A stretch of DNA of 64,000 nt, from assembly GCA_039588295.1 (NCBI GenBank), contig JBDHAB010000004.1, forward strand, positions 128,001 to 192,000, given 5' to 3'. Position 1 is the stretch's first letter. Each line of letters starts with the position of its first letter. The DNA is from Gemmatimonadota bacterium. Its GTDB lineage: Bacteria > Gemmatimonadota > Gemmatimonadetes > Gemmatimonadales > GWC2-71-9. The translations under genes were made by a program, and so were the position numbers. Positions 34,907 through 60,200 of this stretch are shown here, one piece after another. The notes under the pieces were generated by a model. It was not told where the DNA came from. It saw only the letters and a list, made by a program, of their open reading frames with translations, and made no database searches.

Positions 34907-35863
34907 ATGATGAGTAGAGCAACGAGCTTGATCCTCGCGTTGGCAGTGCTGGGTGCCTGTGCTGACGATGGGCAGCGAGGTGAGTTGGTGGGACTGGACG
35001 CCAAAGTTGCGCCCAGTGACGAGGAGAACTGGCTCCACCGCCAATCCGTCGCACGCGCCAGGATGGTCCGTCCGGGACATCTGACCTGGGCTGGTCCCAA
35101 CCGCAGATTCCTATTGGTGACGGACCACTACCGGGGGGTTGTGTTTAAGTACCGGGTCAACCAGGGCGAACTGCTCCTGAAGCGGGAGTTCCAGTTCAAC
35201 GCAGGCATCAGCGGCGTGGCCTGGGGTGCAAACCGCCTATTTGTCGCCAACACCACCACGGCATCGGTCGGAGTCTATCGGTCGTCCGGTACCTGGATGT
35301 ACGACCTCGGCGGTCCGGGCGCATTTGCGTATCCGACCGACATCGAGGTGGACGACGAGCGGGATCTGGTGTTCGTCTTGGACAACCGCAGACAGTCGAT
35401 CTCGGTGTTCACCATCGACGGGGACCACAGGAATACGTGGGCTGCCTCGGCCCTGGGGATGGAGAACCCGGTTGCGATGGGTCTTGACCCCGTCCGAGGG
35501 GAACTCCTCGTCAGTGACTATGGCAACCTGGTGGGGTTCGGAGGCGGGGGAGCGGCCATCCATGTGTTTGACTACGACGGTAACCGGCGCAAGACGATCT
35601 CGGACGAGTCGCTGTTCCCGCGGCCGCAGGGGATAGCGGTGGACGGCCAAGGGCGGATCCTGATGGTTGACGCGCTAGCCTGCCAGTTGATGGTGATTGA
35701 CCGAGAATCGGGCGCCGTTCTCGCCACACACGGTGAGCCGGGCACGGAACCCGGCCAGATGCTGCTTCCTCTCGACGTCGCGGTTGACGCGAACGGCCGA
35801 GCCTTCGTCACCAACAATCGCCTGGGGCGGATCGAGCTGTTTGAGGTAGGAGGTGGATCGTGA
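34907..35863 (+). CDS. NHL-repeat beta-propeller lipoprotein
   Basis: Lipobox LGAC; repeated blades (PTDIEVD, PVAMGLD, PQGIAVD, PLDVAVD). Confidence 0.85.
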   Translation: MMSRATSLILALAVLGACADDGQRGELVGLDAKVAPSDEENWLHRQSVARARMVRPGHLTWAGPNRRFLLVTDHYRGVVFKYRVNQGELLLKREFQFNAGISGVAWGANRLFVANTTTASVGVYRSSGTWMYDLGGPGAFAYPTDIEVDDERDLVFVLDNRRQSISVFTIDGDHRNTWAASALGMENPVAMGLDPVRGELLVSDYGNLVGFGGGGAAIHVFDYDGNRRKTISDESLFPRPQGIAVDGQGRILMVDALACQLMVIDRESGAVLATHGEPGTEPGQMLLPLDVAVDANGRAFVTNNRLGRIELFEVGGGS

Positions 35864-36507
35864 GGAAACGTCGATACGCACTGGTGTTCCTCGCTCTAGC
35901 GCTTGCGCCAGTGGTTGCGGTGGCCTTGCTCGAGGCCCGATCTACCACGGCCTTGCTCACGGGACACCTTGGATGCACCGGATATTGCCACCTTGCGCAC
36001 GGTGGAGGTGGCCCCACGCTCACGCGCGAGGCTGCCTATGACCTGTTGTGTATGAGCTGCCACAACCCGGCGGCTCCGGTCGGCAACGCCCCACCCGCCG
36101 ATTACCACACCGAGGATCCCAACGACTCAAACGACGGGACGACGTACTCCTTCCAGGTGCAGTGCGTGGAGTGTCACCTAGACTCGCCGCACAGCAACGT
36201 GGTGAATGCGTGGGGCGGAACGAACCTCAAGCTTGTCCGTGCATCGGTGACGAATCCGTCCAACAGCGTCTCCTACGATGTCCGCTTCGAGGCGCTCTCG
36301 GGGGACTACTCATTCTGCGATGAGGAGGGCCCTGATACCGAGTGGGACAATCTCTGCGACATGTGCCACAGTGACATCTACGCGGGCCGACACCACAACG
36401 ATCCGGTGGCGGGAGGGAATTGGGGCGACAGCAACCACCACCGGAGCGGATCAACCTGCACAGGGGGCAACTGCCACAATCACGACCGAGGCTTCCAACT
36501 CAGATAG
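35860..36507 (+). CDS. Secreted multiheme cytochrome c with 3 canonical and 2 extended heme motifs
   Basis: Signal peptide; CTGYCH, CMSCH, CVECH, CDMCH, CTGGNCH; GTGA overlap with the NHL gene. Confidence 0.85.
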   Translation: MRKRRYALVFLALALAPVVAVALLEARSTTALLTGHLGCTGYCHLAHGGGGPTLTREAAYDLLCMSCHNPAAPVGNAPPADYHTEDPNDSNDGTTYSFQVQCVECHLDSPHSNVVNAWGGTNLKLVRASVTNPSNSVSYDVRFEALSGDYSFCDEEGPDTEWDNLCDMCHSDIYAGRHHNDPVAGGNWGDSNHHRSGSTCTGGNCHNHDRGFQLR

Positions 36508-36637
36508 CCTGTATGGGTTGGGGAGTACCCCCGGAGAGGTACCTTGCCGTGGGGACCAGCAGAGCGGCTCGGCTTCGGTCGGGCCGCTGTGGTTTGCGGG
36601 AGGAGGGAGACCGTCACGGCGTGGCTAGACATTGGAT

Positions 36638-36652
36638 CGGCGCACCAATTGC
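36638..36652 (+). promoter_or_regulatory. Possible sigma54 promoter of the glycosylation operon
   Basis: CGGCGCACCAATTGC is GG-N10-GC ending in TTGC, about 120 bp upstream of the GT2 gene. Confidence 0.35.
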
Positions 36653-36770
36653 GTAACCGCTTGACAGGCAATAGGCTAGAAGAGGCTCAGTGCCCATTCA
36701 TGGCGCGTTGTTGTCGCCCCGCGGCCTTTGGGAAACGCCAGTCGCTTCATCGGAAAGAGGCAGCCTTGAG

Positions 36771-37757
36771 TTGAAGGTCCTCATTGCCATCCCGGCGTTC
36801 GACGAGGAGGCCACGCTCGGTCATGTCATCGGGTGCCTCCCGCGGGAGCTGCCCGGTGTCTCGTCAGTTGGTGTGCTCGTCGTGGACGACGGCTCGACCG
36901 ACGGCACCGCCGAGGATGCTCGGAAAGCCGGAGCCCGAGTCGTACGGCATCGTCGCCACCTCGGTCTCGGCGCTGCGTTCAACACAGCAGTCGCGGAGGG
37001 TTTGCGCCTCGGGGCCGACGTGCTGGTCACCATCGATGCCGACGGCCAGTTCGACCCCGCGCAGATCCCGGATCTGATCATGCCGATCGTGGACGGCGCC
37101 GCCGACCTGGTGACCGGCAGTCGGTTCGTCGGTGGCCGGCGGCCATCCAGCATGCCCGCCGCTCGCTACTGGGGAAACCGGTTCTTTTCAGGGCTGCTCA
37201 GCCGACTCCTGCAGGAGAAGCTGCAGGACGTGTCCTGCGGCTTCCGGGCGTACTCGCGGGAGGCGCTTTTCAACCTGAACCTGCTCGGCAAGCACACCTA
37301 CACGCAGGAAGCGATCTTCGATCTGGTCTTCAAGGGGCTCAGGGTGGTGGAGGTACCGATTACGGTGCGCTACTTTGAGGCCCGTCAGTCGCGTGTGGCG
37401 GGGAGCCTGGTGAACTACGGGATCAAGGCTCTCAAGATCATCGCCCGCACTGCCCGGGACTTCAAACCGCTCAGGTTCTTCGGGGTGTTTGCGCTCGTTG
37501 TGCTCGCGGTTGGTGTGGGGCTCGACCTCTGGCTCCTGGCTTTCTTTCTTCGCACAGGGAACTTCTCACCGTACAAGTTCGTGGGCTTTGTGGGGACCGC
37601 CCTCATCGTGGTCGCCATCCTAATCCTGGGCTTTGCGCTGCTCGCGGACATGCTAGATCGGCTCAGGGTCAATCAGGAGCGGGTGCTGTATCAGCAGCGC
37701 AAGATGCTGTTCGGGGGCAAGCGCCACGATGATGGGGGAGGCGACGGGACGTCGTGA
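36771..37757 (+). CDS. GT2 glycosyltransferase (polyprenyl-phosphate sugar synthase-like)
   Basis: IPAFDEE, VVDDGSTD, DADGQF, DVSCGFRAY motifs; two C-terminal TMs. Confidence 0.92.
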   Translation: MKVLIAIPAFDEEATLGHVIGCLPRELPGVSSVGVLVVDDGSTDGTAEDARKAGARVVRHRRHLGLGAAFNTAVAEGLRLGADVLVTIDADGQFDPAQIPDLIMPIVDGAADLVTGSRFVGGRRPSSMPAARYWGNRFFSGLLSRLLQEKLQDVSCGFRAYSREALFNLNLLGKHTYTQEAIFDLVFKGLRVVEVPITVRYFEARQSRVAGSLVNYGIKALKIIARTARDFKPLRFFGVFALVVLAVGVGLDLWLLAFFLRTGNFSPYKFVGFVGTALIVVAILILGFALLADMLDRLRVNQERVLYQQRKMLFGGKRHDDGGGDGTS

Positions 37758-38998
37758 CCTCCCGCCGCCGACTTCGGGTACTGATCTCCACGAGCACGTT
37801 CCCGATCCATACCGACGACGGTGTGCCGCGTTTCATCTTCGATCTTGCGCGGTATCTCCAGGCTCACGCTGACGTGACGGTATTGGCTCCGGACGGTCCG
37901 GGAGCAAGACGATCAGAGGACATGGAAGGCGTCGATGTTCGCCGTTTCACCTATGCCGTCCCCCGCTCGAGCCAGCGCCTGGCGCTCGGACAGGGTATGT
38001 GGGACAATCTCCGGGAATCCTGGCTCGCCAAAGCGCAGATTCCCTCGTTCATGGTGGCCCAGCTCCGGGCAACGAAGCGACTGATCCGCGAGAATCGGAT
38101 CGATGTGGTAAATGCCCATTGGCTCGTGCCGTGCGGGCTCACAGCGGCCTATGCCGTTGGGCGGCATCCGAGCACGCGGTTGGTGCTGCACGTTCACGCG
38201 GGCGACGTGTACTTTCTCAACCGCCTGCCCGGTGGTACTGCGATCGCTCGCTACGTCGCGCGCCGCTGCGCCGGAGTCCTTGCCGACGGCAGCCACGTGC
38301 GCGATTCGCTGGACGCGCTGATCGGGTGGCCGAGCGATGCAACGCTTCGGCCGATGGGTGTCGACCTCGGCGTGTTCGGGCGCGATTCGGCAGACCAGGC
38401 AGGTGGGTTGGAGCGTAGCGAATTCGACGATGGGTTCCTGCTCTTCTTTGGCCGCTTCTCGGAAAAGAAGGGTGCGGTCTACCTGGTACGTGCACTCCCA
38501 CGGATTCTCGAGGTGCAGCCGGGACTGGGACTGGTCATGATCGGTGACGGTCCCGAGCGCCACCGCGTCGAGGAGGAGGTCGCCAGACTCGATGTCGCCA
38601 GCGCAGTGCGGTTTCTGGGCCGGAGGTCACATGCAGAGATTGCGTGGTATCTCCACCACTGCCGGGTTGCGGTCGTGCCGTCGATAATCGATCGGTACGG
38701 AGAAACCGAAGGCATGCCGACAGTCGTGGTGGAAGCACTAGCCGCAGGCGCGTTGGTGGTGGGAACCGCCGTCGACGGTATACCGGACGTACTGCGGCAC
38801 GCCGAGAACGGCTGGCTGTGTCGGGAGAAGGACCCGCAGGATCTCGCCGCAAAGATCCTCCAGGCGCTGCGCAGTCGCCCCGATTCGCCGGTAGGTCGCG
38901 GAGCGGCGGCGACGGCGGAGCGTTTTGGATGGGGGTCTGTCGCGGAGGATTACGTTGCACATCTCGAGCGGGCCGTCACTGGAGCAAAGGGGGAGTGA
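37754..38998 (+). CDS. GT4 glycosyltransferase
   Basis: AHW..P.G, FFGRFSEKKG, EGMPTVVVEALAAG motifs. Confidence 0.92.
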   Translation: MTSRRRLRVLISTSTFPIHTDDGVPRFIFDLARYLQAHADVTVLAPDGPGARRSEDMEGVDVRRFTYAVPRSSQRLALGQGMWDNLRESWLAKAQIPSFMVAQLRATKRLIRENRIDVVNAHWLVPCGLTAAYAVGRHPSTRLVLHVHAGDVYFLNRLPGGTAIARYVARRCAGVLADGSHVRDSLDALIGWPSDATLRPMGVDLGVFGRDSADQAGGLERSEFDDGFLLFFGRFSEKKGAVYLVRALPRILEVQPGLGLVMIGDGPERHRVEEEVARLDVASAVRFLGRRSHAEIAWYLHHCRVAVVPSIIDRYGETEGMPTVVVEALAAGALVVGTAVDGIPDVLRHAENGWLCREKDPQDLAAKILQALRSRPDSPVGRGAAATAERFGWGSVAEDYVAHLERAVTGAKGE

Positions 38999-40911
38999 TG
39001 GGCCGTAGACTCCACTGGATGGTACTGGGTGGCGGGGTCGTGCTCACTATGCTCGCCTATCGCCCTGCGCTCGACGTTGGGTTCGTCTTCGATGACCGGA
39101 TCAACATCGAGCAAGCCTCGGGTGTGCACTGGACCGAGGTATCCCGGGCAGCGGTTCGGGCGCTCAGGGACTCCACACTGATTCCGCGTCGGGCCGTTGC
39201 GAACGCGTCCTTCGCGCTCAACCACCTCGCCGGCGGCCTCGAGCCGCGGGGTTATCATCTCGTCAACATCCTGACTCATCTCGCCGTGGGCCTTGCGCTT
39301 GTGTGGGTCGCGCTCCTCTACCTGCGGGCGGTGTTCCCCGATCGGGAGCGGGAGCGGCTACTCCTTGCGGCCGTTCTGTCGGCCGTGCTGTTCCTGGTCC
39401 ATCCGCTCAATTCGCAGGCGGTGACGTACGTCGTCCAGCGGATGGCGTCGCTGGCGGCGCTGTTTTCGCTGCTCGCGCTCGGTGCCTACTGGGTCGGGCG
39501 CACCCGTCCGGGCGGCCGCGGGATCCCGTGGTTCGGCGCGGCCGCGGTTGCCTGGCTGCTCGCACTTGGCAGCAAGGAGAACGCGATCCTGCTGCCGCTC
39601 GTCGTGCTCACCTACGAGTGGTGCTTCAAGCGTGCCGAGTGGCGTGACCGGTGGCGCGGGATGGCGCCCGGTCATCGCTGGGGCGCCGGCATCGCCGGAC
39701 TCGTGCTGCTGGCGGTCGCCGCAGTCGCGATCCTCGGGTATGCCGGCGGGAATCCGGTCCAGTGGGCGGGCACGTTCCAGTATCGCGACTACACGCCTGT
39801 GGAGCGGGTGTTGACCCAGGCCAGGGTGCAGGTGTTCTACCTGACGCTCCTCGTGTGGCCGGCACCGGGACGCCTGAGCCTGGATCACGACTTCGCGGTG
39901 TCCCGCGGTCTCCTCGCGCCTCCGACGACGGTGCTGGCATGCCTGTTCTGGCTCGTGGTGCTTGCTGCAGGACTGGTTCTGGCCGTGCGACGGCCGCGCT
40001 ACGGTTTTCCCCTGCTGGCGTACCTGGAGTGGCATCTCGTCGAAGCGGGGCCGGTGAACCTTGAGCTGGTGTTCGAGCACCGCATGTACTTGCCGATGAC
40101 GATGCTGGCACTCGCGGCCGCGGTGGGTCTCGCCGAAGTGTCGAACCGCTACCGACGTGTGAGCGTGGTTGCCGCGCTGCTGCTCGCACTGCCGCTCGCG
40201 TGGGGCACGTGGCAGCGGAATCTCGTCTGGGCCGATCCGGAGGTGTTCATCTGGGACACCGCGCGCAAGGCGCCGAGCAAGGTCAGGCCATGGTACAACC
40301 TCGGCACACTACTGCTCAAGTGGGATCGGCCCGAGGAGGCGGTCGAGCCACTGGAGCGTGCGGTGCAGGCTGATTCGACCGACTGGCGGGCGACCGATCA
40401 GCTGGGGCTCGCGTATCTGGGGGTGGGGCGCACGGACGATGCGCTGGCCACGTTCCGACGTGCTGCGGCGCTCGAGCCGGACGAGGTCGAGCCGGAGCTG
40501 CACATCGGGCGGGCACTCGAGCTGCGGGGATCGACGCTAGAGGCGTCGCGGCACTTGCTGGATGTCGGCACGCGTCGCGGCTTGGCGGGGGACGTCATGA
40601 TGGCTATGCTGGCGCTGCAGCGGGCCGTCGAGCTCGACTCGACGAGCTCTGCGGCGCATAACGCGCTGGGGAACGCGTATCTGCTCGCGGGCCGACCGCT
40701 CGACGCACTCCCCCAGTACCGCCAGGCGGTATCCCTGGACTCCACCAATGTCGAAGCGGTGTACAACGCTGGCATGACGATGGCGGATCACGGTGATCCC
40801 GTGGAGGCGCTGGTGCTGCTCGAGCGGTTCGTCGAGTTGGCACCGGCGCGGTTCGCCTCGCAGGTCGCGGCCGTGCGTAACAGAGTCCGGGATCTGAGGG
40901 GTGAGTTGTGA
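38998..40911 (+). CDS. TMTC-like GT-C membrane protein with TPRs (putative protein O-glycosyltransferase), paralog A
   Basis: GFVFDD after TM1, YHLVNILTH, HPLNSQAV, SKENA, EHRMYLP, then C-terminal TPRs. Confidence 0.82.
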   Translation: MGRRLHWMVLGGGVVLTMLAYRPALDVGFVFDDRINIEQASGVHWTEVSRAAVRALRDSTLIPRRAVANASFALNHLAGGLEPRGYHLVNILTHLAVGLALVWVALLYLRAVFPDRERERLLLAAVLSAVLFLVHPLNSQAVTYVVQRMASLAALFSLLALGAYWVGRTRPGGRGIPWFGAAAVAWLLALGSKENAILLPLVVLTYEWCFKRAEWRDRWRGMAPGHRWGAGIAGLVLLAVAAVAILGYAGGNPVQWAGTFQYRDYTPVERVLTQARVQVFYLTLLVWPAPGRLSLDHDFAVSRGLLAPPTTVLACLFWLVVLAAGLVLAVRRPRYGFPLLAYLEWHLVEAGPVNLELVFEHRMYLPMTMLALAAAVGLAEVSNRYRRVSVVAALLLALPLAWGTWQRNLVWADPEVFIWDTARKAPSKVRPWYNLGTLLLKWDRPEEAVEPLERAVQADSTDWRATDQLGLAYLGVGRTDDALATFRRAAALEPDEVEPELHIGRALELRGSTLEASRHLLDVGTRRGLAGDVMMAMLALQRAVELDSTSSAAHNALGNAYLLAGRPLDALPQYRQAVSLDSTNVEAVYNAGMTMADHGDPVEALVLLERFVELAPARFASQVAAVRNRVRDLRGEL

Positions 40912-42569
40912 CCGGCAAGAGGATGCTGCCGATCGCGGTGCTTGCGGCCGGTGTGCTTCTCGCGGGGCTCGCCTACCTGCCGGCGTTGGACGCGGATTTC
41001 GTTTTCGACGACCCGCCCAACATCGTGGCGCAGTCCGGGATTCACTGGACCGAGTTTTCGGTAGAGGCGGTGCGGGGGCTCAGGGACTCGACGTTGATCC
41101 CGCGGCGGGTGGTGGCGAACACGACGTTCGCGTTGAACCACCTCGTGGGTGGGCTGGACCCCTGGGGGTATCACCTCGTCAACATCCTCGTCCATCTCGC
41201 GGTCGGGCTGGCCTTGGCCTGGGTGGCATTTCTGTATCTGCGGGCGGTGCTGCCGGGGAAGGACCGGGATGCCCTGGCGCTGGCGGTGGTGGTGCCGGTG
41301 GTGGTGTTCCTGGTGCATCCGCTCAACACGCAGGCGGTGAGCTACGTGGTACAGCGGATGGCGTCGTTGGTGGCGCTGTTCTGCCTGCTGGCATTTGGGG
41401 CGTATCTGGTGGGGCGGAACAAGCCGATACAGCGCGGTAGATGGCCGTGGTATGTCGCAGCGGTGGTGCTGTGGGGTCTGGCGTTGGGGAGCAAGGAGAA
41501 TGCGGTGCTCCTGCCGCTGGTGGTGGTGATCTATGAGGTGTGTTTCCACCGTCAGACGTGGCGCGAGTGGTGGGCAGCTCAGAGCCCTGCCGCCCGCGGA
41601 CGGCTGGTGGGTGTGATCGGTGTCGTGCTACTGGCCGCAGTGGGTTTCATTGCGGTGTACGCCGGGACGAGGCCGATTGCGTTCACCCGGGAGTGGGCGC
41701 AGCGGGACTTCAACGGGTGGGAGAGGATCCTGACACAGTTGCGGGTGCAGGTGTTTTACCTGGGGCTACTGCTGTGGCCGGCGCCGGGTCGGTTGAACCT
41801 GGACCATGACTTCAGCGTGTCGCGGGGATTGGCCGAGCCGGCATCGACACTCCTGGCGGGGCTCTTCTGGGTGGCGGCTGTTGTAGGAGCGCTGGCGCTG
41901 GCACGGCGGCGCCCGCGGTATGGTTTCCCCGTGCTGGCCTACCTGACATGGCATCTCGTGGAGGCGGGCCCACTGAACCTGGAGCTGGTGTTCGAGCACC
42001 GGATGTACCTGCCGCTCACCATGCTGGTCTTGCTGCTAGCGGTGGCCTTTGCTGATCTGGGCGACCGCAGGCGCTGGCCGGCTGTCATTGCGGCCTTGGT
42101 GGTCGTCCTCCCGCTGAGCTGGGCCACATCGACGCGCAATCAGGTGTGGGCGGATCCGGTCGCGCTCCATTGGGACACGGCCCACAAGTCCCCCAACAAG
42201 TTCCGGCCGTGGTACAACTTGGGCACGCTGCTCGGTGCCAACGGGCAAGTGCAGGAGGCGCTCGAGCCACTCGAGCGAGCCGTGTCGCTCCGCCCTGATT
42301 ATTCGCCTGCGCACAACCAGCTCGGCAACGTCTATTACTTCCTGGATCGTAAGGGGGAGGCGCTCACAGAGTATCGAGCGGCGGTGCGCCTGAACGCACA
42401 GAACGCCGAGGCGGTGTACAACGTTGGTATGCTGCTGGATGAACAGGGGAGGTTTGTTGAGGCGGTCCCCTACTACCGGCGGTTCGTAGAGATCGCCCCG
42501 GCGGAACTGGCCCCACGCGCTAATGAAGTGCGGCGGCGGCTAGGCGCGTCAGGTGACGTCCGCAGGTAG
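40908..42569 (+). CDS. TMTC-like GT-C membrane protein with TPRs, paralog B
   Basis: DFVFDD, YHLVNILVH, HPLNTQAV, SKENA, EHRMYLP; close tandem paralog of A with fewer TPRs. Confidence 0.82.
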   Translation: MTGKRMLPIAVLAAGVLLAGLAYLPALDADFVFDDPPNIVAQSGIHWTEFSVEAVRGLRDSTLIPRRVVANTTFALNHLVGGLDPWGYHLVNILVHLAVGLALAWVAFLYLRAVLPGKDRDALALAVVVPVVVFLVHPLNTQAVSYVVQRMASLVALFCLLAFGAYLVGRNKPIQRGRWPWYVAAVVLWGLALGSKENAVLLPLVVVIYEVCFHRQTWREWWAAQSPAARGRLVGVIGVVLLAAVGFIAVYAGTRPIAFTREWAQRDFNGWERILTQLRVQVFYLGLLLWPAPGRLNLDHDFSVSRGLAEPASTLLAGLFWVAAVVGALALARRRPRYGFPVLAYLTWHLVEAGPLNLELVFEHRMYLPLTMLVLLLAVAFADLGDRRRWPAVIAALVVVLPLSWATSTRNQVWADPVALHWDTAHKSPNKFRPWYNLGTLLGANGQVQEALEPLERAVSLRPDYSPAHNQLGNVYYFLDRKGEALTEYRAAVRLNAQNAEAVYNVGMLLDEQGRFVEAVPYYRRFVEIAPAELAPRANEVRRRLGASGDVRR

Positions 42570-42743
42570 GGATTGCAGGCAAGTGCGTCCTGCCAGAGCC
42601 AGCCACAGTCCTGGATGTCCCCGGTCTCGTTATCCAGATCTCCTCACGTGCCCGGACGGGAGTCAACTGGGAGATCTATGCGGGTTGTTGCAGTGAGTGC
42701 GCTGTTCACGGCCAGATCCGTGTTACACGTTCCTTCAGTCACT

Positions 42744-43661
42744 ATGCGCTATTGGCGTCTCATCGTCGCCGTAGCTGCCCTCACGATTCTGGTGATGTAT
42801 GTGGGACACGGAGAATTCGTTCGTGTGCTGTTGCGGACCCGGCCGACGTGGCTGCTGCTGTACCTGGTCGGCCTTGGAGCACTACCGCTCCTGTATGGCT
42901 GCCAGATCTGGGTCTCCCTCCGTCTCCTCGGTCACGATTTGCCCGTTTCCAGCGCCCTGTCCGGCAGTGTCAACGCATGGGCCGTAGGACAGATCACACC
43001 CGCGCGTGCGGGTGATCTGAGTCTCGCGCACTTCCTTGGTGCGAAGGCACCAGCGCCTGTCGTCGTCAGCTTGGTCGTGGTGGATAAGGCCCTCAGCTTG
43101 GCGTTGCTGGCCTTCATCGCCGCTGTTGCCGGTGTCACACTTGAGTTCAGCCTGGCAACATCCGTGATAATCGCTTCAGCGATTCTGCTCGGAGTGCTGG
43201 GTATTGGGAGCGTGCTCTTCCTGGCGATCCTGAGGATACCACGCGCTTGGCGATTATTGCCCCAGTTCGCCCGTCGCTTCTCCGAGCAGGCGCGACAAGC
43301 GCTCCTGGCCGTCACTGCGAGGTGGTCGCTGATCGCGTGGAACCTCGTGGCCATCCTGCTCAAGTGGACTGTTGTGTTCACGTTGATTTGGGTACTGTTC
43401 CGATCTCTCGACTACTATCCTCACGTTAGGTTTGTCACAGCTGCCTCAGCGATTGGGCGGTTACTTGCCCTAGTCCCTGTCACCGTTGGCGGTATCGGGC
43501 TCAAGGAGCCGATTCAAATCGTGATCTATCAGCTTGATGGCATTCCCGACGAAGCGGTTGTGGCCGTAAGCACACTCGGTGCGTCCCTTGGTTTCTTGAT
43601 GACAGCCTTTCTGCCGCTGCTCATAGCGAGAGGGTTCGGTTGGCGATCGGAGGTGTCGTGA
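42744..43661 (+). CDS. Lysylphosphatidylglycerol-synthase TM-domain (flippase-like) protein
   Basis: ITPARAGD, VVVDK and LVPVTVGGIGLKE motifs; multi-TM. Confidence 0.78.
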   Translation: MRYWRLIVAVAALTILVMYVGHGEFVRVLLRTRPTWLLLYLVGLGALPLLYGCQIWVSLRLLGHDLPVSSALSGSVNAWAVGQITPARAGDLSLAHFLGAKAPAPVVVSLVVVDKALSLALLAFIAAVAGVTLEFSLATSVIIASAILLGVLGIGSVLFLAILRIPRAWRLLPQFARRFSEQARQALLAVTARWSLIAWNLVAILLKWTVVFTLIWVLFRSLDYYPHVRFVTAASAIGRLLALVPVTVGGIGLKEPIQIVIYQLDGIPDEAVVAVSTLGASLGFLMTAFLPLLIARGFGWRSEVS

Positions 43662-47862: not shown

Positions 47863-48638
47863 TCATCTCGCCGCGGGCTGCAGCGAGCCACCGCCGTGCG
47901 ATGCATGACACTCCGTGCACTTCCCCCCAGGGCCATGTGCCGGGGCCGCTGCCGCCGCGGCAGCCCGTGACAGACGGCGGCGACCTGCGCTCGCGCCGAC
48001 CGTCGACAGCCCGCTGGCCGAGTGGCACGACTGGCACTGCAGGTCGGGCGTGCTCTCGCGCAAGAGCCGCGTGCCCGGCTGACCGTGGTGCAGGTCGTGA
48101 CAGTCCGAGCACGCGAGGGAAACGTGCTCGTGGGTCGCATACTCCGACGAGCTGTGGCACCCGGCGCAGATCATGCGCTGTTCGCTCGCGTCGGGGATCG
48201 GCGACAGCCGGTCGTGCGGGTCGTGACAGTCGGTACACTCGATCACCGCGGACTGCGACGCCAGTTGCAGCGGCGAGCGCAGGTACCGGCGCGACGCCCG
48301 CCGCCGCCCGGTGGGCTGCGGTATGCTCACCTCCACATCGCCGAGCGGGTGAACCCCTACGCCGGTCGGCCCGAGGTACCGCGCGCCGTCGGATTGGCGG
48401 ACGGCCGTGAGTGCGGGGAGGCCGGGTTGCTGCTGACGGAGGCTCTCGTTGAGGTGAGGGAGCCTTCGCCGAGTCGCAGCGTCGCCCTGGTCGGCCGTCC
48501 CACGTGGGCGGCGTGGCAGTAGTCGCACGAACTGAGTTCTCCCACACCCTCGGTCTCCGCCACCTGAGGATGCTGACCCTGGGCGGAGGTGGGAACGAGG
48601 GCCACCACCGGCAGCCACGCGAGCCTGGCTATCCGCAA
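47863..48638 (-). pseudogene. Secreted multiheme cytochrome c split by a frameshift (at least 6 hemes)
   Basis: Signal peptide and CDYCH are in one frame (48638-48357). HPLG...IECTDCHDPH, CAGCH, CSDCH, CQSCH and CTECH are in another frame ending at 47863. Could be a sequence error. Confidence 0.72.
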
Positions 48639-48639
48639 G

Positions 48640-51809: not shown

Positions 51810-52463
51810 ATGAAGAGAACGCTTGTTTCAACGATGGTGGCGCTCGCAATGCCTGTTTTCGCGGCGTCGGCTTCGCCCCTGTGGAATGCGACCCTGTCGA
51901 CGACGCCGTGGACGAGCTTGGCGGCCAGCCCGCACGACTTCACGGCGTCCAATCCGGATCCGACCTACGCCGCGATTGCCGCGACGAACAAGTGTGAGTC
52001 GTGTCACCACCCTCACGAAGCGATTGGCGCCGCCTACGGTCCGCTGTGGAACCACAGCCTCAATTCAGGCGCCAACGCGTATACGATGTACGGTACCACC
52101 ATCGCTGGCAACGACCCCACCAACAATGCGGTCGGCAACGCATCGCTCCGGTGCTTGGGCTGCCATGACGGCACGCTTCCGATCGATGCCTACGGCGGCA
52201 GCGCGGGCACCCCGACGCTCACGGTCGGCCTGGAGAAGTTCAGCAACCTGGCCGACGTGACAACCGATCTGACGGACGATCACCCGGTGGGGTACAACAT
52301 TCCTCTTGGTACGGCGGGCTGGCAGGCCAATCTCACCGGTGCTTCTGCCACGGCCTACAGCGGCGACGTGGAGTGTGCCAGCTGCCACGATCCGCACGGC
52401 ACGACGTACGGCGTGAAGTTTCTGCGGGCTGCGGACTTCTGCACGGACTGCCACGACAAGTAG
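51810..52463 (+). CDS. OmcE-like tetraheme cytochrome (candidate cytochrome nanowire subunit)
   Basis: GGAGGAGGAGG RBS; signal peptide; ordered motifs PHDF, CESCHHPH, PLWNH, YTMY, SLRCLGCHDG, DLTDDHPV, VECASCHDPH, FLR, CTDCHDK-stop, matching the OmcE pattern as I recall it. Confidence 0.85.
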   Translation: MKRTLVSTMVALAMPVFAASASPLWNATLSTTPWTSLAASPHDFTASNPDPTYAAIAATNKCESCHHPHEAIGAAYGPLWNHSLNSGANAYTMYGTTIAGNDPTNNAVGNASLRCLGCHDGTLPIDAYGGSAGTPTLTVGLEKFSNLADVTTDLTDDHPVGYNIPLGTAGWQANLTGASATAYSGDVECASCHDPHGTTYGVKFLRAADFCTDCHDK

Positions 52464-52581: not shown

Positions 52582-53661
52582 ATGCTCGGGAGAAGCTATA
52601 GCATGATTCGGTTCGGTGGTCCGGTTCTGGCGATGGTGGTGGCTACGGCGTGTGCCAGCGGCGGCACCATGGAATACATCTTCTATCCGCCCCCGCCAGA
52701 CACGGCCCGCTTCCAATTCCTCAGGGGCATCTCCTCGCTCGATGACGTCAAAGGCTCCGGGCGGTCCTTATTCGCGGCCATTGTGGGTGAAGAGAGGAAG
52801 GCGAGCCCGATCCGCATCATCCGGCCGTACGGGGTCTCTGTCGACAGTGGCCTGATTTACGTCTGCGACGTCAATCTGCCCGGCGTCTCGATCATCGATC
52901 TGGCCGAGAAGTCGATGCGGCAGGTCATGAGCCCGACCCTGCCGCGACCCAGTGCCTGTGTGGTGGATCGGGCGACCGGTCAGCTCTACATCGCCGATTC
53001 CGAGCGACAGGAGATAGTGATCATAGGGACGGACGGCATCTACGCCGGCGTCGTGGGAGACAGCCTGCGCGGGCCCGGCGGTGTCTACGTGACCGATGAC
53101 CGGGTGTGGGTTACCGATATCGGAACGAAGCAGGTTCGCGTGTACGACAAGGCAACGCGCCAGCATCTGCGCGCATTCCCGGATCGGGGCCTCGAAAGAG
53201 ACGATCCGGCTCGGCTCCAGTGGCCCATGAGCCTGTCTGTGCATGGAGACCGCGTGTACGTCACCGACCAGTTCGCTGCGCACGTGAACGTCTATTCGAC
53301 GGACGGGGCGTACGTCAGAACGATCGGGCGACGCGGGGTGAGTTTCGGGGCCTTCGACCTGCCCAAGGGTGTCGTCGTGGATCCCGCAGGCCGGGTCTAT
53401 GTGGCGGACTTTCAGTTTCACCACGTCCAGGTGTTCGACGAGGAAGGGAGCGTGCTCACCTACTTCGGGGGTGGGGGTCGGGGGCGACCCGGATACCTGG
53501 GCGGGCCCATCGGCCTTGCCATCGACGACGTCAACCTTGAGTACTTTCGGGAGTACGTGCACCCGGACTTCGACCTGAAGTTTCTTATTTACGTGACGAA
53601 TCAGGTCGGTGCCCAGAAGCTCTCGGTCTACGGGTTCGTCGAGCCGAAAGCGGGACGCTAG
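52582..53661 (+). CDS. NHL-repeat beta-propeller lipoprotein
   Basis: Lipobox ATAC; FYPPPPDTARFQFL; blades PYGVSV, PGGVYV, PMSLSV, PKGVVVD, PIGLAID. Alternative ATG at 52603. Confidence 0.88.
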   Translation: MLGRSYSMIRFGGPVLAMVVATACASGGTMEYIFYPPPPDTARFQFLRGISSLDDVKGSGRSLFAAIVGEERKASPIRIIRPYGVSVDSGLIYVCDVNLPGVSIIDLAEKSMRQVMSPTLPRPSACVVDRATGQLYIADSERQEIVIIGTDGIYAGVVGDSLRGPGGVYVTDDRVWVTDIGTKQVRVYDKATRQHLRAFPDRGLERDDPARLQWPMSLSVHGDRVYVTDQFAAHVNVYSTDGAYVRTIGRRGVSFGAFDLPKGVVVDPAGRVYVADFQFHHVQVFDEEGSVLTYFGGGGRGRPGYLGGPIGLAIDDVNLEYFREYVHPDFDLKFLIYVTNQVGAQKLSVYGFVEPKAGR

Positions 53662-53904: not shown

Positions 53905-55437
53905 TCATTGATTCGGCCGGTTCGCACTCATGGCTTCGAGGGCTGCCGCGGCCGTTCTATTCTGCCGATCGAGGCGGAGGACACGACGGTACCATCCTTC
54001 GGCCTCCCCCGTGTTCCCGCGGCCGGCAGCGCGACTTGCGAGCCGCAGGTACTGCATCACGTACACCTGGGTGTTCAGCACGCCCGCGCGTCTGTGCTCG
54101 TCGGCCTTTGCGGGTTGTCCGAGGCGCTCGTACTCCCGAATCAGCGCCACGCGCAGGGCGTTGGACCGTGGGCTCACCCGCACGGCCGTCTCGAATACCG
54201 TGACGTTATCGCGCCACACCGCGTTCCGGCGCGCCGTGAGCACCGACAAGGTGGTGAGCAGGACGACCGTCACGACCAGCGAGATGGGGACGCTTCGGAG
54301 TGCGCGACCGTGGACGCCTGCGGAGGCAACTGCCCGGACTGCCGCATACGCAAGGCCCAGCATCGGGACGTAGAGAAACCGTTCGCCGATCATTGCTCCC
54401 CTGAGTGGAACGATGTTCATGACGGGGAGGAGGGTAATAAAGAACCAGGCAATTCCAAATGCCACATGCGTGTTCCGGCGCATGTTGTATGCGGCGATGA
54501 ACACCACAATCGCGATGACGCCAAGCGCACCGAGAGCGCCGGGGTCGAGATAGGATTCCGGAATGCCGACCTCATGGCGAACGGATTGGCGCACGGGAAT
54601 CAGGAGAAGTCGGAGGTACTTTGCCACGACTGCCGCCTGCATCAGCATCGTTCTCGTGAAGGTGACACCCATCCACTCACCGCTCGCCAGCCCGCCGAGG
54701 AGGTGACTGCGCCACCAGACGAACGCCGCCGCAATGGCGACGAACCCGAGGAGATACGCAGAGTATCCTCGGTGCAGTGTGAATCCGTTCCTTCGGCGCC
54801 GGAGCAGCAAGTCGGACAGCACCACGAGCAGTGGCAGCGTGATGGCCATCTCCTTGGCCAGCAGTGCGAGGCCGAAGCACACATACACGGCCGCCACGGC
54901 ACCTGGGTGCCATGAGCCGCGCCTTCGTAGCCCTAAGTGCAGGTAGAGGGACAGCAAGACCAGGGACGCGGAGAGAAGGTCTGCGAATCCGGTCACATTG
55001 GCTACTGCCTCTGTCATGATCGGATGGGACGCAAAGACCGCTGCCACGATCATCCCCGCCCCGCGCGTGCCGGACAACAGGGTGAACACGGCGTAGGTCA
55101 GGAGGACGTTCACCACATGCACGAGACCATTGAGCGCGTGATACGCCAAAGGACTCAGTCCGAAGGCGTGATGTACGATCGCAAACACCAGCGTCCGGAG
55201 CGGCCGATAGTATGCCATGCCCTCGGCAGCCACACCCGTGCGGTAGTCGGTGAAGAACTGCGGCAGGTTCCCGAGATCGCGGACGGCAGGATTGTCGACG
55301 AGAACGGGAAAGTCGTCCCAGACGAAGCCGTTCAGCAGCGTATTCGCGTAGATCAGGACGGTTCCGAGCACGAGCGCGACGGGGACTACCGGAGGGTCCT
55401 TCCGCGTCGCCGGGCCGCTGTTACCTGCCATCGTCAT
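53905..55437 (-). CDS. TMTC-like GT-C membrane protein with a short TPR tail, paralog C
   Basis: NGFVWDD, YYRPL, HPIMTEAV, AKEMA, ERFLY and RNAVW motifs. Confidence 0.82.
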   Translation of the reverse strand: MTMAGNSGPATRKDPPVVPVALVLGTVLIYANTLLNGFVWDDFPVLVDNPAVRDLGNLPQFFTDYRTGVAAEGMAYYRPLRTLVFAIVHHAFGLSPLAYHALNGLVHVVNVLLTYAVFTLLSGTRGAGMIVAAVFASHPIMTEAVANVTGFADLLSASLVLLSLYLHLGLRRRGSWHPGAVAAVYVCFGLALLAKEMAITLPLLVVLSDLLLRRRRNGFTLHRGYSAYLLGFVAIAAAFVWWRSHLLGGLASGEWMGVTFTRTMLMQAAVVAKYLRLLLIPVRQSVRHEVGIPESYLDPGALGALGVIAIVVFIAAYNMRRNTHVAFGIAWFFITLLPVMNIVPLRGAMIGERFLYVPMLGLAYAAVRAVASAGVHGRALRSVPISLVVTVVLLTTLSVLTARRNAVWRDNVTVFETAVRVSPRSNALRVALIREYERLGQPAKADEHRRAGVLNTQVYVMQYLRLASRAAGRGNTGEAEGWYRRVLRLDRQNRTAAAALEAMSANRPNQ

Positions 55438-55524
55438 CGGTGTTCACTGCCCACGGCTGGTCCGTGCCTGTGTGCTCCGTGAACGACCGGTGTTGTCACT
55501 TGCAGCGCCTCGAGAACCGGCATA

Positions 55525-57345
55525 CTACTGCGAGAGCTTGGCGCGGAGGAGCGCGATCTGCGCAGCGAACCGCTGCGGAGCAGTCTCCATGAACCGGCGG
55601 TAGAGAACCCGAGCCTCCTCTTCACGTCCCGCCTGTTCGTACGCTCTGCCGAGATTGTAGAGCGCCTCCGGAAACAGCGGGTCGATCTCGAGCGCCCGCT
55701 GCCACAAGACAGTCGCCTCAGTGCGGTTCCCTCGTCGGTCTAGAAGATTGGCCAGGTTATTGAGGGCGGTCGGGTGGCGCGGACTCAATTCCACGGCACG
55801 TCGATAATGGTATTCCGCTCGATCGAAGTCCCCCAGGCGTGCGTACGCGACGCCGAGGCTCAGGTGCGCCCCCTGGGACGATGGGGCCAACTCCACCGCC
55901 CGGGACAGATGACGCCGGGCCTCTTTGGGGGCGCCGAGTGCGAGAGCGACGTCGCCCAGGTTCAGCCACGCGCGACTGTATTCCGGGAAGACCGTGGCGG
56001 CATACCGAGCATGTCGGCGGGCTCCCTCATAATCCCCGACATCGAAGTACGCCGTGGAGAGCGAGGCTTGCACGAACGCGCTCCCCGGCTGCACGGTCGC
56101 AGCGCTGGTGAACAAGGCCATCGCATCGTGCCAGTCGCTCGTTCGCAACCAGGTTCGCCCCGCATAGAGAACGATGACAGCCGCGACTGCCACACGTCCC
56201 AACGCCCTTCCGCGCGCTCCGGACAGCCGGACCAGGGCATCCAATCCCACGATTGCCGCGATCGCGAGGCCCGCCGTAGGGAAGTACAGGAACCGCTCGG
56301 CAAACAATGATGCGACCGGCCGCACCGCGTTCACACCAAGGAGCGCGACGTGTGACAGCACCATACTCAATCCAACGAACGCCACGCGCGAGCGCCGGGC
56401 CAGCCACGAGAGCGTCCACAAGGAGACGAGCAGGACGGCGCTCCCGAGAATGACGCGCGCGTCAAGGAAACTCCGAGCGATTGGGATGGCCTCGTAGGAG
56501 TAGTCTGCCGAGAGCGGTACCGGGTAGATCCACAGCTGGGCAGCCTGCGCCAGAAGCGCCATTGCAGTGATGAACCGAGGACCGAGGGGCTCCGCAATCA
56601 GGGGGTTGAACACGTACTCGATGGGTGACTGGCGCAGCCCCCCGAATCCGGCCGCAAGCCCGGCCACATAGACAACAGCAGTCAGCAGATACACACCGAA
56701 TCGGCCCCACTGCGGCTTCGGCTTCCTGGTGGCCTCGAACAGCAGCAGCACACCAAGCAGCGCAACGGCGCCTTCCTTACAGAGCAATGCGAGCCCGAAC
56801 AGGATGACACCGGTCACGTGTGCCCATGATGCTCGAATCGCCCCGCTGCCGGGCGAGCGGACGTAGAGCACGAGAGCGGCAAGAGAAAACAGCGCTGCCA
56901 GGAGCTCGCTTCGCGCCGCGCCCCAGGCCACGGCTTCGCTGGTCACCGGATGGACTGCGAAGACGGCGGCACCACAGGCGGCAAGTGTCGCCCGGCCTGT
57001 GAGTGCGGTGACGAGCAGCATTACCAGGACGGCGTTTGCCCAATGGAGCAGGATGTTGCCTAGGTGATACCCGAACGGGCTGAGGCCGCCCAGCGCGTAG
57101 TTGACGGCGTAGGACAGCGTAATGAGCGGTCGATAGTGCGTTCGGGAGGATGCCGACGTGGACTCCCAGAACCCGGATGTGAACATCTCAGGGAGGTTGG
57201 CCAGGTTCCGGATGACCGGGTTCTGCTGGATAAACGGGATGTCGTCGACCACAAAGCCGTTGGAGAGTGCGTTCACGTATGCGACGAAGATCAAGGCCCC
57301 CAGCAGGAGCGCGAATGCTGCAAGCCGTCTTGTCTCCCCCGACAT
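55525..57345 (-). CDS. TMTC-like GT-C membrane protein with TPRs, paralog D
   Basis: NGFVVDD, HYRPL, HPVTSEAV, CKEGA, LSADYS, ERFLY, then several TPRs. The start is uncertain. Confidence 0.82.
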   Translation of the reverse strand: MSGETRRLAAFALLLGALIFVAYVNALSNGFVVDDIPFIQQNPVIRNLANLPEMFTSGFWESTSASSRTHYRPLITLSYAVNYALGGLSPFGYHLGNILLHWANAVLVMLLVTALTGRATLAACGAAVFAVHPVTSEAVAWGAARSELLAALFSLAALVLYVRSPGSGAIRASWAHVTGVILFGLALLCKEGAVALLGVLLLFEATRKPKPQWGRFGVYLLTAVVYVAGLAAGFGGLRQSPIEYVFNPLIAEPLGPRFITAMALLAQAAQLWIYPVPLSADYSYEAIPIARSFLDARVILGSAVLLVSLWTLSWLARRSRVAFVGLSMVLSHVALLGVNAVRPVASLFAERFLYFPTAGLAIAAIVGLDALVRLSGARGRALGRVAVAAVIVLYAGRTWLRTSDWHDAMALFTSAATVQPGSAFVQASLSTAYFDVGDYEGARRHARYAATVFPEYSRAWLNLGDVALALGAPKEARRHLSRAVELAPSSQGAHLSLGVAYARLGDFDRAEYHYRRAVELSPRHPTALNNLANLLDRRGNRTEATVLWQRALEIDPLFPEALYNLGRAYEQAGREEEARVLYRRFMETAPQRFAAQIALLRAKLSQ

Positions 57346-57540
57346 CGGGCCCGAAGGGATCTTCGTAGGACATTCCTTGAGTCTTTCCATGCTCCGGACT
57401 CCCGTCAGATCACCCGAGCGGCTTGTCGACAAAGAACGTCTCGGTCACACCGATCCCGCCAACCACCGCGGCGCGCGCGAGAAGATACGACAGGTAGAGG
57501 TATCCGAGTCGCCGGTTTCCGAGCAGGGGATCTTCACAAT

Positions 57541-57799
57541 CCTCACGAAGTTCAACACCAATTCCTGGGTCACCACGGGCCTTACGGACGATCACCCGGT
57601 CGGGTACGATCTGCCGAACGACGTTAATGAGTACAGCCAAACGCCCTCGACGGCTAAGTTGTACGGTGGCGCCATAGAGTGCGCAAGCTGTCACGACCCA
57701 CACGGCACTACCTACGGCGTGAAGTTCCTGCGGGCTCAGGATTTCTGCTCGGACTGCCACAACAAGCAGGTCAAGTTGTGCGCCCGCGCGGCGGGTTGA
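57541..57799 (+). pseudogene. 5'-truncated second copy of the OmcE-like gene
   Basis: Encodes VTTGLTDDHPVGY...IECASCHDPHGTTYGVKFLRAQDFCSDCHNK, very similar to 52258-52460. No signal peptide or first two hemes, and the stop position reads CAG instead of TAG. Confidence 0.85.
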
Positions 57800-57809
57800 G
57801 ATCGCGGAG

Positions 57810-57846
57810 CCGGGGGTGGCCAAAGATTGCCACCCCCGGTTTTATT
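57810..57846 (+). terminator. Rho-independent terminator, related to the 52522 hairpin
   Basis: CCGGGGGTGGC-CAAAGATT-GCCACCCCCGG followed by TTTTATT. Confidence 0.8.
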
Positions 57847-57875
57847 GTGGTCGAGACCTCGTACGGAGTTGTGGA

Positions 57876-58499
57876 GTGTCGATTCGAATTCGCCTTCACT
57901 TGTTGGCTCTGACCTGCTCGGTGTGTGCTCTTGGAGCGTGTGCGAGCAGTGGTTCGATTGAGTATGTCTTCTTCCCGCCTCCGCCGGACACGGTGCGGCT
58001 TCAGTATTTGGGTAAGATCAGTCCACTTGACGATCGCAAGGAGGTGGGGCGTTCCGTATTTGCCATGCTTGGGGGTGGGGAGGAGGAACAGAGCCCAATC
58101 CGCCTCCTTCGCCAGTACGGCGTGACGACCGATACCGGAACCATCCACGCCTGCGACGTGAACCTGCCTGGCGTCCAGGCGATCGATCTGGGGGAGCGAG
58201 ATATCCGCCAGATCAAGAGCCCCACCATGATGCAGCCGAGCATTCGCACCGTGGATCCCGTCACCGACGAGCTCTACGTGGTAGAGGACAATCGGGACGA
58301 GATCGTCGTGCTTGGGGTGGATGGTATGTTCAAGAGTGTCGTGCCGATGGACGTGTGGATCGACTACGCCAATCTGGATCTTTATCGGGATTGGGTGCAC
58401 CCGGATTTCACGCTGAAGCACCCAGTGCTGGTTGCGAACCAACTCAGCCCTGATAAGTTGGCCATTTGCGGGTTCGTGGAACCAAGACAGGGCCGGTAA
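57876..58499 (+). pseudogene. Internally deleted copy of the NHL lipoprotein at 52582
   Basis: Same N-terminus (GACASSGSIEYVFFPPPPDT) and C-terminus (VHPDF...GFVEP) but about 150 aa are missing in frame. Confidence 0.75.
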
Positions 58500-60200
58500 T
58501 TGGCGTTACAGGCGCTACGGAAGTCGCTCCTGACATCGGAGCTAGGGCCACTCGCTCTTCTCATTGCGGTCAACCCGGTGGTCTACTCGATCAACCGGAG
58601 CGCGGCGTACTTTCCGCCGGATTCCATCCTCTACGCCGTTATGGCCAGGGACTTCCTAGACGGTCTCCCGCTGCATGTATCGGGTTGGGGTGGGGCCGGC
58701 GGTGGAGTCATCTTGCCACCACTCTACCCAGCCGTGGTCGCACTAATGTCGATCGCGAGCCCGAATCGGTTGGCAGTGGCGGAGTATGTGAGCGCCATCA
58801 GCATCATCCTGGCTGCCATTCCCCTGTATCTCACGGCTCGCTCATACGCCGGGAGAATTCCCAGCCTCATCGGAGTCGGTGCCCTCCAGTGCATGGGGTT
58901 CTACTTCCACACGGCTCTTCAACCGCTCACAGAGGGCCTGTTCATACTGGTCTCAGCGATTGCTGCCTACGTGTTGGTCAGGACGGCGAGGAGAGGGACG
59001 AAGTTGAGGTGGGTCCTGATATCCGGTGTCTGCGCCGCGCTCGTCTACTTCACCCGCCAGATAGGCCTGCTGTTTCTCCCATGCGCGGTTCTGTTCTTCC
59101 TCCTTCCGGGAACAGAGTCCTTTCGAAGTCGAGTGAAGCGACGAGTCACAGCGGCAGTGGTGGTGGTGGGTGGTTTTCTGGTTCTTGCTGGACCGTATGC
59201 GCTGACGCTTTACTTGCAGACTGGTCAACTCCCCCTCAAGCAGCGTTTCAGTACTCGATCGCAGGCGGTGCAACCGAGCGCTGAAGACCTCCGCACAATT
59301 GAGCGTATCCGCGCGGAGACAAGCGCCGGCTACGAAGGCACGTACGGTGAGCGCCGAAGGCTCCGAAAGCTGAACGAGGCCCGATCGGCTATGCTCTCTT
59401 CGGTTGTTGCAGGTGACGGCAACCAAAGGAGCCTCGTTTCGTCGGTTTTCAAGACGCTCATGTCCCCGCGAAGTGTGATTCAACGGATCGGCTCCAACCT
59501 GCGGCATGTGGTGACCGCCGCCGGTCCGGGGCTTTCCCTCCTGTTTTGCATGGCCATGCTCTTTCCACTCACGCGTACGACGGATGAGCGCCGACGGTGG
59601 GTCTGGAGTGTGCCGTGGTTGTGGGTGGTTGGATATGTCTTTGGGCTTTCTCTGGTATCGACCACAGTTGACCGCTACGTCCTTGTAATCATCCCATTCC
59701 TGTTCCTGCAGTCGGTGCTTTTCCTCACAACTGTCGGGGGTTGGCTGCCTGCGGTGCGTACCCGTCATGGGCGGCTGCCCATTGACGGAGGGCTCGCCAC
59801 GATCGTGTTCGTGATCGGGTTAGCGTCGGCGCCGTCTTTGTTTGCAGACGTTTCCCGCTATCCGAAGCTGTTGGAGTCGGAGTTGCCAATGGGTGCGCTG
59901 CGTAACGTTGTTGGCAGGGGTGACCCCATGTTCACCCTCTACCCGGCAGATGCCTACTTCTTGGGTGGAATCTTCCGCGTCCAGCCGGACGCACGCACGG
60001 GAGACTTGGCTGCGTTTGCTCGTCGCACGGGTGTCAAGTGGCTGGTCGTTCGCCGCACCCCGCAGATCATGCAGGAGTTGCAGTACTACTCCGAATCCTC
60101 GTGGTACCTCGATCCAGGCGTGGTCAGTGACACCAACTTGGTCTTCATGGGCTCGAGCGAGGATGACGTGTTACACCTTTATCGCGTTCGCGATCAGTAG
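58500..60200 (+). CDS. ArnT/PMT-like (GT-C) membrane glycosyltransferase
   Basis: PDSILY, PPLYP, LTEGLF, FTRQIG and DRYVL motifs; multi-TM. Confidence 0.78.
   Translation: MALQALRKSLLTSELGPLALLIAVNPVVYSINRSAAYFPPDSILYAVMARDFLDGLPLHVSGWGGAGGGVILPPLYPAVVALMSIASPNRLAVAEYVSAISIILAAIPLYLTARSYAGRIPSLIGVGALQCMGFYFHTALQPLTEGLFILVSAIAAYVLVRTARRGTKLRWVLISGVCAALVYFTRQIGLLFLPCAVLFFLLPGTESFRSRVKRRVTAAVVVVGGFLVLAGPYALTLYLQTGQLPLKQRFSTRSQAVQPSAEDLRTIERIRAETSAGYEGTYGERRRLRKLNEARSAMLSSVVAGDGNQRSLVSSVFKTLMSPRSVIQRIGSNLRHVVTAAGPGLSLLFCMAMLFPLTRTTDERRRWVWSVPWLWVVGYVFGLSLVSTTVDRYVLVIIPFLFLQSVLFLTTVGGWLPAVRTRHGRLPIDGGLATIVFVIGLASAPSLFADVSRYPKLLESELPMGALRNVVGRGDPMFTLYPADAYFLGGIFRVQPDARTGDLAAFARRTGVKWLVVRRTPQIMQELQYYSESSWYLDPGVVSDTNLVFMGSSEDDVLHLYRVRDQ

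Follow-up and report, generated by a model that had tools for sequence, protein, structure and literature searches.

An OmcE-type cytochrome cluster with an optional sugar-transfer cassette in Gemmatimonadales: TMTC-like proteins as candidate glycosyltransferases of exported cytochromes

We analyzed a stretch of 64,000 nucleotides from a Gemmatimonadota bacterium of the order Gemmatimonadales (contig JBDHAB010000004.1, positions 128,001 to 192,000; hereafter the window), in which a locus of ~25 kb (34907..60200) combines a gene for an OmcE-like multiheme cytochrome with genes for sugar transfer. The locus fills the slot between ccmE-ccmF-ccmH with a zinc-ribbon gene on one side and an ABC/transglutaminase gene group on the other. 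Its genes fall into at least four transcription units, distributed over the two strands, and do not form a single operon; a scan for promoters and terminators performed at chance level. A sequence-only reading of this DNA had listed the genes of the locus as lying downstream of ccmEFH, and we found all of them, directly after ccmE-ccmF-ccmH and the zinc-ribbon gene, together with a broken second omcE-NHL copy (~57452-58499) that it had overlooked.

The OmcE-like protein (217 aa; 51810..52463, forward strand) is a tetraheme cytochrome with a signal peptide and is 30% identical to the reference, Geobacter sulfurreducens OmcE (PDB 7tfs; E 1.7e-11). Its four CxxCH motifs and four distal histidines all align to those of OmcE, and in an alignment of 90 sequences, retained from the 120 matches listed, these residues varied little or not at all. 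A model of the protein (pLDDT 70, without hemes) had 7tfs as its sole Foldseek match, with a probability of 1.00, a modest E-value of 2e-3 and a TM-score of 0.49. The next gene on the same strand encodes a beta-propeller lipoprotein, NHL2 (52603..53661; PF01436), which is 27% identical to the NHL protein preceding omcE in G. sulfurreducens. Upstream, on the reverse strand, are genes for a hexaheme c7-type lipoprotein cytochrome (50541..51431; six CxxCH motifs; TIGR04257, 118 bits), a large beta-barrel of the outer membrane with a small beta-sandwich insert (48640..50544), which has orthologues in omcE-like loci, and a heptaheme cytochrome, frameshifted in the assembly (47863..48638). The barrel has no Pfam match; its AlphaFold2 model is all-beta (pLDDT 78), and Foldseek led to LptD, MtrB and usher barrels. 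No homology was detected between it and the barrel of the G. sulfurreducens omcE locus (hhalign probability 1.5%, over the last 74 columns only, from shallow alignments of 8 and 3 rows). A second core gene pair stands at the beginning of the locus, where NHL1 (34907..35863, forward; PF01436), another beta-propeller lipoprotein, has orthologues of 30-37% identity that adjoin a 13-14-heme gene in relatives. Here it is followed by a short cytochrome c (35860..36507, forward; three CxxCH and two atypically spaced motifs) that corresponds to the first, N-terminal module only of the relatives' 13-14-heme protein and is either a natural short form or a truncation.

The sugar genes lie between and beyond these core genes. 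On the forward strand they begin with a family 2 glycosyltransferase (GT2) with two C-terminal transmembrane (TM) helices (36690..37757; PF00535), whose best NCBIfam matches, AglJ (3.8e-39) and PpgS (1.6e-27), are both below cut-off; it is likely a polyprenyl-phosphate sugar synthase. It is followed by GT4 glycosyltransferase a (37754..38998; PF00534), the TMTC-like GT-C/TPR proteins a (38998..40911) and b (40908..42569), a membrane protein of the LPG-synthase-TM or flippase-like type (42573..43661; PF03706 and TIGR00374, above cut-off), a radical SAM protein from a tight family of ~351 aa (43658..44713; PF04055; relatives at 48-58%), and a polysaccharide pyruvyltransferase family protein (44710..45957; PF04230). 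GT4 glycosyltransferase b (45927..47078; PF00534) and a SAM methyltransferase (47088..47816; PF08241), 86% identical to its orthologue in the related genome G008, are on the reverse strand, as are the TMTC-like proteins c (53905..55437) and d (55525..57390) on the far side of omcE. These are followed, on the forward strand, by the remnant of a second omcE that retains only the C-terminal two heme motifs (57452..57799; 62% identity over residues 140-217), a second NHL2 copy with an internal deletion that joins residues 17-166 in frame to 317-367 (57816..58499), and a PMT_2/ArnT-like GT-C membrane protein (58500..60200; PF13231, E 1.7e-11; ~10 TM segments). GC content at third codon positions (GC3) was 0.64-0.68 in the flippase-like, radical SAM, pyruvyltransferase and GT4 b genes and 0.75-0.86 in the intact core and TMTC-like genes.

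The description of four TMTC-like GT-C/TPR proteins in the sequence-only reading needs correction, since profiles back it for some of them only. DD (motif M1) and KE (M4) are invariant in all four proteins, and an ERxxY-type M7 is present as ERFLY in c and d, together with YRP, and as EHRMY in a and b, together with PRR. The full M2 motif SHKSYRP was not matched beyond YRP or PRR, and M5 (DW) was not found in any of the four. PF08409 exceeded its cut-off in d only (31 bits against 27); a had no PF08409 match and b a weak PMT_2 match (E 0.009), and a, b and c were assigned to the family by homology and motifs. Proteins a and b are 59% identical and c and d 30%. Crude hydropathy predicted 6-8 TM segments, and TPR matches were present in a, b and d and absent from c, which has a short C-terminal part. 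Throughout the family PF08409 was found at E<=0.01 in 17 of 43 aligned members, and alone it was too insensitive for a survey, detecting 12 of 61 genomes compared with 41 of 61 for a purpose-built profile. Profiles of the membrane domain had no matches in the PDB, and an ESM Atlas search matched only unnamed or TPR clusters. For the TMTC enzymes we take GT105 to be the family label. The animal TMTC1-4 protein O-mannosyltransferases (PMC7801869) share with the window proteins an N-terminal multi-TM domain followed by TPRs, DD, KE and ERxxY-type motifs and, in d, PF08409, whereas the reduction of SHKSYRP and the lack of DW set the window proteins apart. Full-length TMTC homologues in uncharacterized prokaryotes were already reported there, with ArnT as the closest structural template; no bacterial member was shown to be active in the literature searched.

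In its minimal form, the omcE cluster was described as omcE plus a large barrel, a pair of beta-propeller lipoproteins and a pair of multiheme cytochromes (PMC13712944). The corresponding parts are present in the window: the large barrel, two beta-propeller lipoproteins and two multiheme cytochromes, one of them frameshifted. This content supports the identification of the locus, on sequence grounds, as a putative OmcE-type nanowire cluster. OmcE-like genes were detected in 7 of 61 close relatives and in at least 14 of 251 sampled Gemmatimonadota genomes. We also observed a mirror-image double omcE module flanking NHL1 and a 14-heme gene (genome G181, L139-L140), 11-heme proteins with an OmcE-like part near omcE (L021, L074, L094, L136), and, on a contig that bears the title Thermoplasmata archaeon and may be misbinned (L082), an OmcE-like gene accompanied by two NHL genes.

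The locus had been proposed as an undescribed system, which fails because omcE clusters followed by glycosylation genes have been described for Geobacter; in the commoner form 15-70 genes come after the core, for GT2, GT4 and GT39 enzymes, for the modification of sugars, and for methyltransferases, exporters and TPR proteins (PMC13712944). That paper lists omcE clusters for five phyla, Gemmatimonadota not among them. In the literature searched, which did not include its supplement, where such homologues or genes may be listed, no transferase was named for OmcE and no omcE cluster was placed in Gemmatimonadota; the available parts of the reviews PMC12954529 and PMC12307469 held nothing further on glycosylation. 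What is added here is the Gemmatimonadota host and a TMTC-like candidate transferase near omcE. The Geobacter/Geomonas cluster (PDB 7TFS; PMC13712944) resembles the window in its tetraheme OmcE with eight histidine ligands, two NHL lipoproteins, multiheme cytochromes and large barrel, in adjoining heme-maturation genes, in existing with and without glycan genes, and in the GT2, GT4, GT-C, methyltransferase, flippase-type and TPR/TMTC-like genes next to the core. It differs in using ResB/CcsB rather than Ccm maturation and in having 9- and 8-heme cytochromes where the Gemmatimonadales host has hexaheme c7 and heptaheme partners, in addition to the barrels, which are not detectably homologous. 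The window, unlike Geobacter, has a divergent gene order, four TMTC-like genes, PF03706 instead of Wzx, and a pyruvyltransferase and radical SAM gene without gmd/fcl. The minimal cluster of Desulfuromonas soudanensis (PDB 9YUQ; PMC13712944) has the same core parts and no glycosylation genes, and corresponds to the cassette-free loci of three congeners of the window genome (below).

The published structures connect gene content with glycan: likely glycan density was reported on G. sulfurreducens OmcE and none on that of D. soudanensis, minimal clusters having no glycosylation genes (PMC13712944), and OmcE glycans were proposed to insulate the wire (PMC9473688). In G. sulfurreducens (G100, the genome in which the 7tfs protein is encoded in its full length of 232 residues), omcE is followed by the barrel gene, a TMTC-like gene between two GT2 genes, and then GT4, gmd and fcl; genes for methyltransferases, a Wzx-type flippase and a YfhO-like protein also belong to this stretch. 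The TMTC-like gene, third after omcE (G100:C1, ~658.9-660.3 kb), encodes a protein 30% identical to both c and d (E 1.6e-28 and 8e-25) in which DD is kept and the other motif patterns are unmatched. Mature G. sulfurreducens OmcE has no N-x-S/T sequon, so any glycan on it would likely be O-linked; the window OmcE has three such sequons. In 81 Desulfuromonadia genomes, 54 had OmcE-like and 51 TMTC-like matches. To measure linkage we took, from 150 listed OmcE-like matches, 91 with frames of up to 330 aa and E <= ~3e-39, and compared them with the 150 listed among 282 TMTC matches. A listed TMTC-like gene was within 20 kb of 19 of the 91 OmcE-like genes (18 of 49 genomes), compared with at most 4.5 for random placement, and within 10 kb of 12, compared with 2.3.

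Taken together with the position of TMTC-like GT-Cs inside the omcE cluster, these observations led us to favor a reading in which an optional cassette glycosylates exported cytochromes. We give an even chance to the proposal that the TMTC-like enzymes O-glycosylate the exported cytochromes of the cluster via a lipid-linked sugar; the OmcE filament would most likely be the acceptor among them. In this scheme CcmEFH would attach the hemes, and OmcE would leave the cell through the barrel, or be anchored by it, and polymerize by cross-subunit histidine ligation. GT2 would load a sugar onto polyprenyl phosphate, the GT4, methyl-, pyruvyl- and radical SAM enzymes would extend and tailor the lipid-linked sugar, and the flippase-like protein would carry it across the inner membrane. 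The TMTC-like proteins would then transfer the sugar to periplasmic serine or threonine residues, with their TPR arms selecting the acceptor, and the PMT_2 enzyme may extend the glycan. More generally, an exchangeable donor block (GT2, GT4s, tailoring enzymes and flippase) would feed a GT-C in the membrane, and the acceptor would depend on which GT-C this is. This logic of lipid donor and GT-C enzyme, and the nanowire identity of the cluster, survive from the proposal in the sequence-only reading that the glycan genes decorate secreted cytochromes, but the tight coupling it implied does not, as shown by the congeners, the cross-phylum loci and genome G368 below. TfpW, the pilin arabinofuranosyltransferase of Pseudomonas aeruginosa (bioRxiv 10.1101/2020.04.19.049825), is alike in logic, being a membrane transferase that sugars a surface-filament subunit, and differs in that its acceptor is pilin.

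To place the TMTC-like proteins relative to their homologues, we built a quick tree of 52 membrane domains (SH-aLRT support only; rows chosen by context, one short row dropped; deep branches not relied on). Twenty-five rows from pilus loci formed one clade (SH-aLRT 98), and the four window proteins fell outside it, in three lineages. Proteins a and b were nearest to the cassette gene of genome G004 and to three genes from an omcE-like locus of Aromatoleum, and the Geobacter-type omcE-linked genes formed a group of their own. Because several lineages are represented, TMTC-like proteins were probably recruited to omcE loci more than once. The genome has six TMTC-like genes. One lies with pilin gene(s), membrane protein(s) and a GT2 gene within the pilRS/pilBTC/pilMNOPQ region (G000:C42, ~30.5-38 kb), an arrangement that recurs across the order (L101, with a GT87-like membrane protein, L102, L110-L115, L118, L119, L127, L129 and L130) and is likely a pilin glycosylation module; our search of the literature for bacterial TMTC and pilin glycosylation found nothing. 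Since the pilin locus comes with a TMTC and a GT2 of its own and the window paralogues are outside the pilus clade, pilin is not their obvious target, and the exported cytochromes of the cluster are the likeliest acceptors. Elsewhere a TMTC-like gene adjoins genes for a pentaheme cytochrome with a collagen-like stretch, DUF1207 and SnoaL-like proteins (G000:C37, ~22.4-27.3 kb; L100, L103, L107).

Several results weigh against this reading. Among 15 Gemmatimonadota loci read, three had a cassette, two had one TMTC-like gene and 10 had no glycosyltransferase, two of the latter being on short contigs of 5.7 and 12.8 kb. In the congeners G001-G003, the slot is continuous from ccm to the ABC genes and holds seven core genes and no glycosyltransferase. 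In a cross-phylum scan (best 80 of 520 loci, flanks up to 10 kb), NHL genes were found at 75 loci and a barrel match at 35, compared with TMTC-like genes at four, GT2 at none and GT4 at none (one weak), and none of the 28 full cores had a glycosyltransferase. Conversely, of the 54 relatives in which OmcE had no match, 34 had TMTC-like genes, often adjoining pilin genes; 14 of 25 other TMTC loci chosen for reading adjoined pilin-motif genes and four a pentaheme cytochrome gene. The OmcE-linked TMTC-like proteins are not one clade, and the Desulfuromonadia counts include related genomes and are not independent. In the survey of OmcE neighborhoods, linkage to TMTC-like genes held in Desulfuromonadia, including G. 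sulfurreducens, and was rare across phyla. The serine plus threonine share of OmcE, which we considered as a signal of glycosylation, was rejected: it was 0.18-0.24 with a cassette and 0.20-0.21 without. The coupling is not tight, and the cassette is optional in Gemmatimonadota loci.

The three cassette loci are those of the window genome (G000), of G008, where it is divided over two contig ends, and of G004, where it adjoins the pair of NHL1 and multiheme genes on a contig other than that of omcE. In all three, this pair is followed, all on one strand, by GT2, GT4 and TMTC a, and the tailoring genes vary. The scan of locus proteins with Pfam found no Wzx, Wzy or Wzz match, in agreement with the sequence-only reading; Wzx and Wzy_C matches were found on other contigs of the genome, and Wzz had no match in the genome. 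The missing Wzx is a weak argument for protein glycosylation, since the cassettes of G004, G008 and G. sulfurreducens carry a PF01943 flippase.

The alternative that survives best, although we consider it unlikely, is that a general periplasmic protein-glycosylation island shares the variable slot between ccmH and the ABC/transglutaminase group with the omcE module and acts on other surface proteins. It draws on the difference in GC3, on the sheer size of the TMTC-like family (93,452 clusters at E<=1e-10), and on two genomes that also count against our favored reading. In G007 a single TMTC-like gene stands in this slot, and there is no omcE module. In G368, a genome of 3 contigs that is 96% complete, one block unites counterparts, at 36-52% identity, of the whole set of seven sugar genes, from GT2 and the two GT4 genes to those for the flippase-like, radical SAM, pyruvyltransferase and methyltransferase proteins; the 38 kb examined there contain no TMTC, and neither omcE nor the barrel had a match in the genome. 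The block (L222:9684-19944 and L223:1-844) includes two further, mutually related multi-TM proteins of ~650 aa with a WDSLxYHL motif, one with a weak PMT_2 match, which are possibly an unnamed GT-C family. Set against a general island are the enrichment of TMTC-like genes near omcE in Desulfuromonadia, the agreement of glycan density with gene content between G. sulfurreducens and D. soudanensis (PMC13712944), and the TMTC-like genes that flank the omcE module on both sides in the window and adjoin it in G004, G016 and G343. The radical SAM protein had only distant relatives (22-38%) in a metagenome scan; among its loci of at least 6 kb (n=39), pyruvyltransferase was found in 13, GT4 in 23, TMTC in one and omcE in none. 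The radical SAM gene adjoins, or is apparently fused with, a pyruvyltransferase gene in many glycan loci (window 43658-45957; L145-L158).

A further possibility, which we regard as improbable, is that this strain's nanowire module is in decay and forms no working filament, leaving the cassette without a nanowire to decorate. The heptaheme gene, which the sequence-only reading had noted as a multiheme cytochrome, is split: a clean 76-nt gap relative to the G008 orthologue, near 48457, removes one heme motif and shifts the frame, which also counts against our reading. The reduction of the 13-14-heme gene to its first module and the broken second omcE-NHL copy point in the same direction. However, omcE, NHL1, NHL2 and the hexaheme and barrel genes have their full length, no heme ligand is missing, and G008 has an intact heptaheme equivalent. 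Moreover, the frameshift may be an assembly error, because contigs of one public run that are 100% identical to its flanks end 6 and 9 nt on either side without bridging the site. Near-identical contigs to window 46500-60300 (15 of 27 at >=99%) were found in a run labelled marine sediment metagenome. Finally, there is little chance that the sugar genes serve the synthesis or modification of a glycolipid, of lipid A/LPS or of a short glycan on the surface, with GT-C enzymes acting on lipid acceptors as ArnT does: the PMT_2/ArnT-like and pyruvyltransferase genes, the Wzx-type flippases of sister cassettes, the Wzx and Wzy_C genes elsewhere in the genome and the ArnT template (PMC7801869) agree with this, but TPR arms on three of the four TMTC-like proteins suggest protein acceptors, members of the family adjoin pilin or cytochrome genes, and neither Wzy nor Wzz was matched in the locus.

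Outside the locus, the window contains FeS/NrfD genes of the Hmc-like type, accompanied by genes for three GcvH-like proteins and for a two-component system (676-8288), as well as what we take to be genes for a sulfide:quinone-reductase-like flavoprotein, a TusE/DsrC-like and a DsrE-like protein (24367-26644). A possible second electron conduit (11006-16877), kept in the congeners, consists of a cytochrome of 19 hemes joined to a membrane domain that resembles cytochrome b, together with a barrel-like protein and 12-heme and 4-heme cytochromes.

Extending the favored reading to the family, we propose tentatively, and with less confidence than in the reading itself, that O-glycosylation of cytochrome nanowires is initiated by bacterial TMTC-like enzymes, with separate lineages for pilins and exported cytochromes and exchangeable donor cassettes; the G. 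sulfurreducens TMTC-like protein would make the OmcE coat, and one Gemmatimonadales genus would have both glyco-tuned and bare wires. If so, a knock-out target would be named for the OmcE glycan coat in the genetically tractable G. sulfurreducens, and a very large bacterial enzyme family related to the human TMTCs would gain a substrate. Altogether, our results suggest OmcE-type extracellular electron transfer in Gemmatimonadota, where cassette-bearing and cassette-free versions in a single genus offer a natural comparison.

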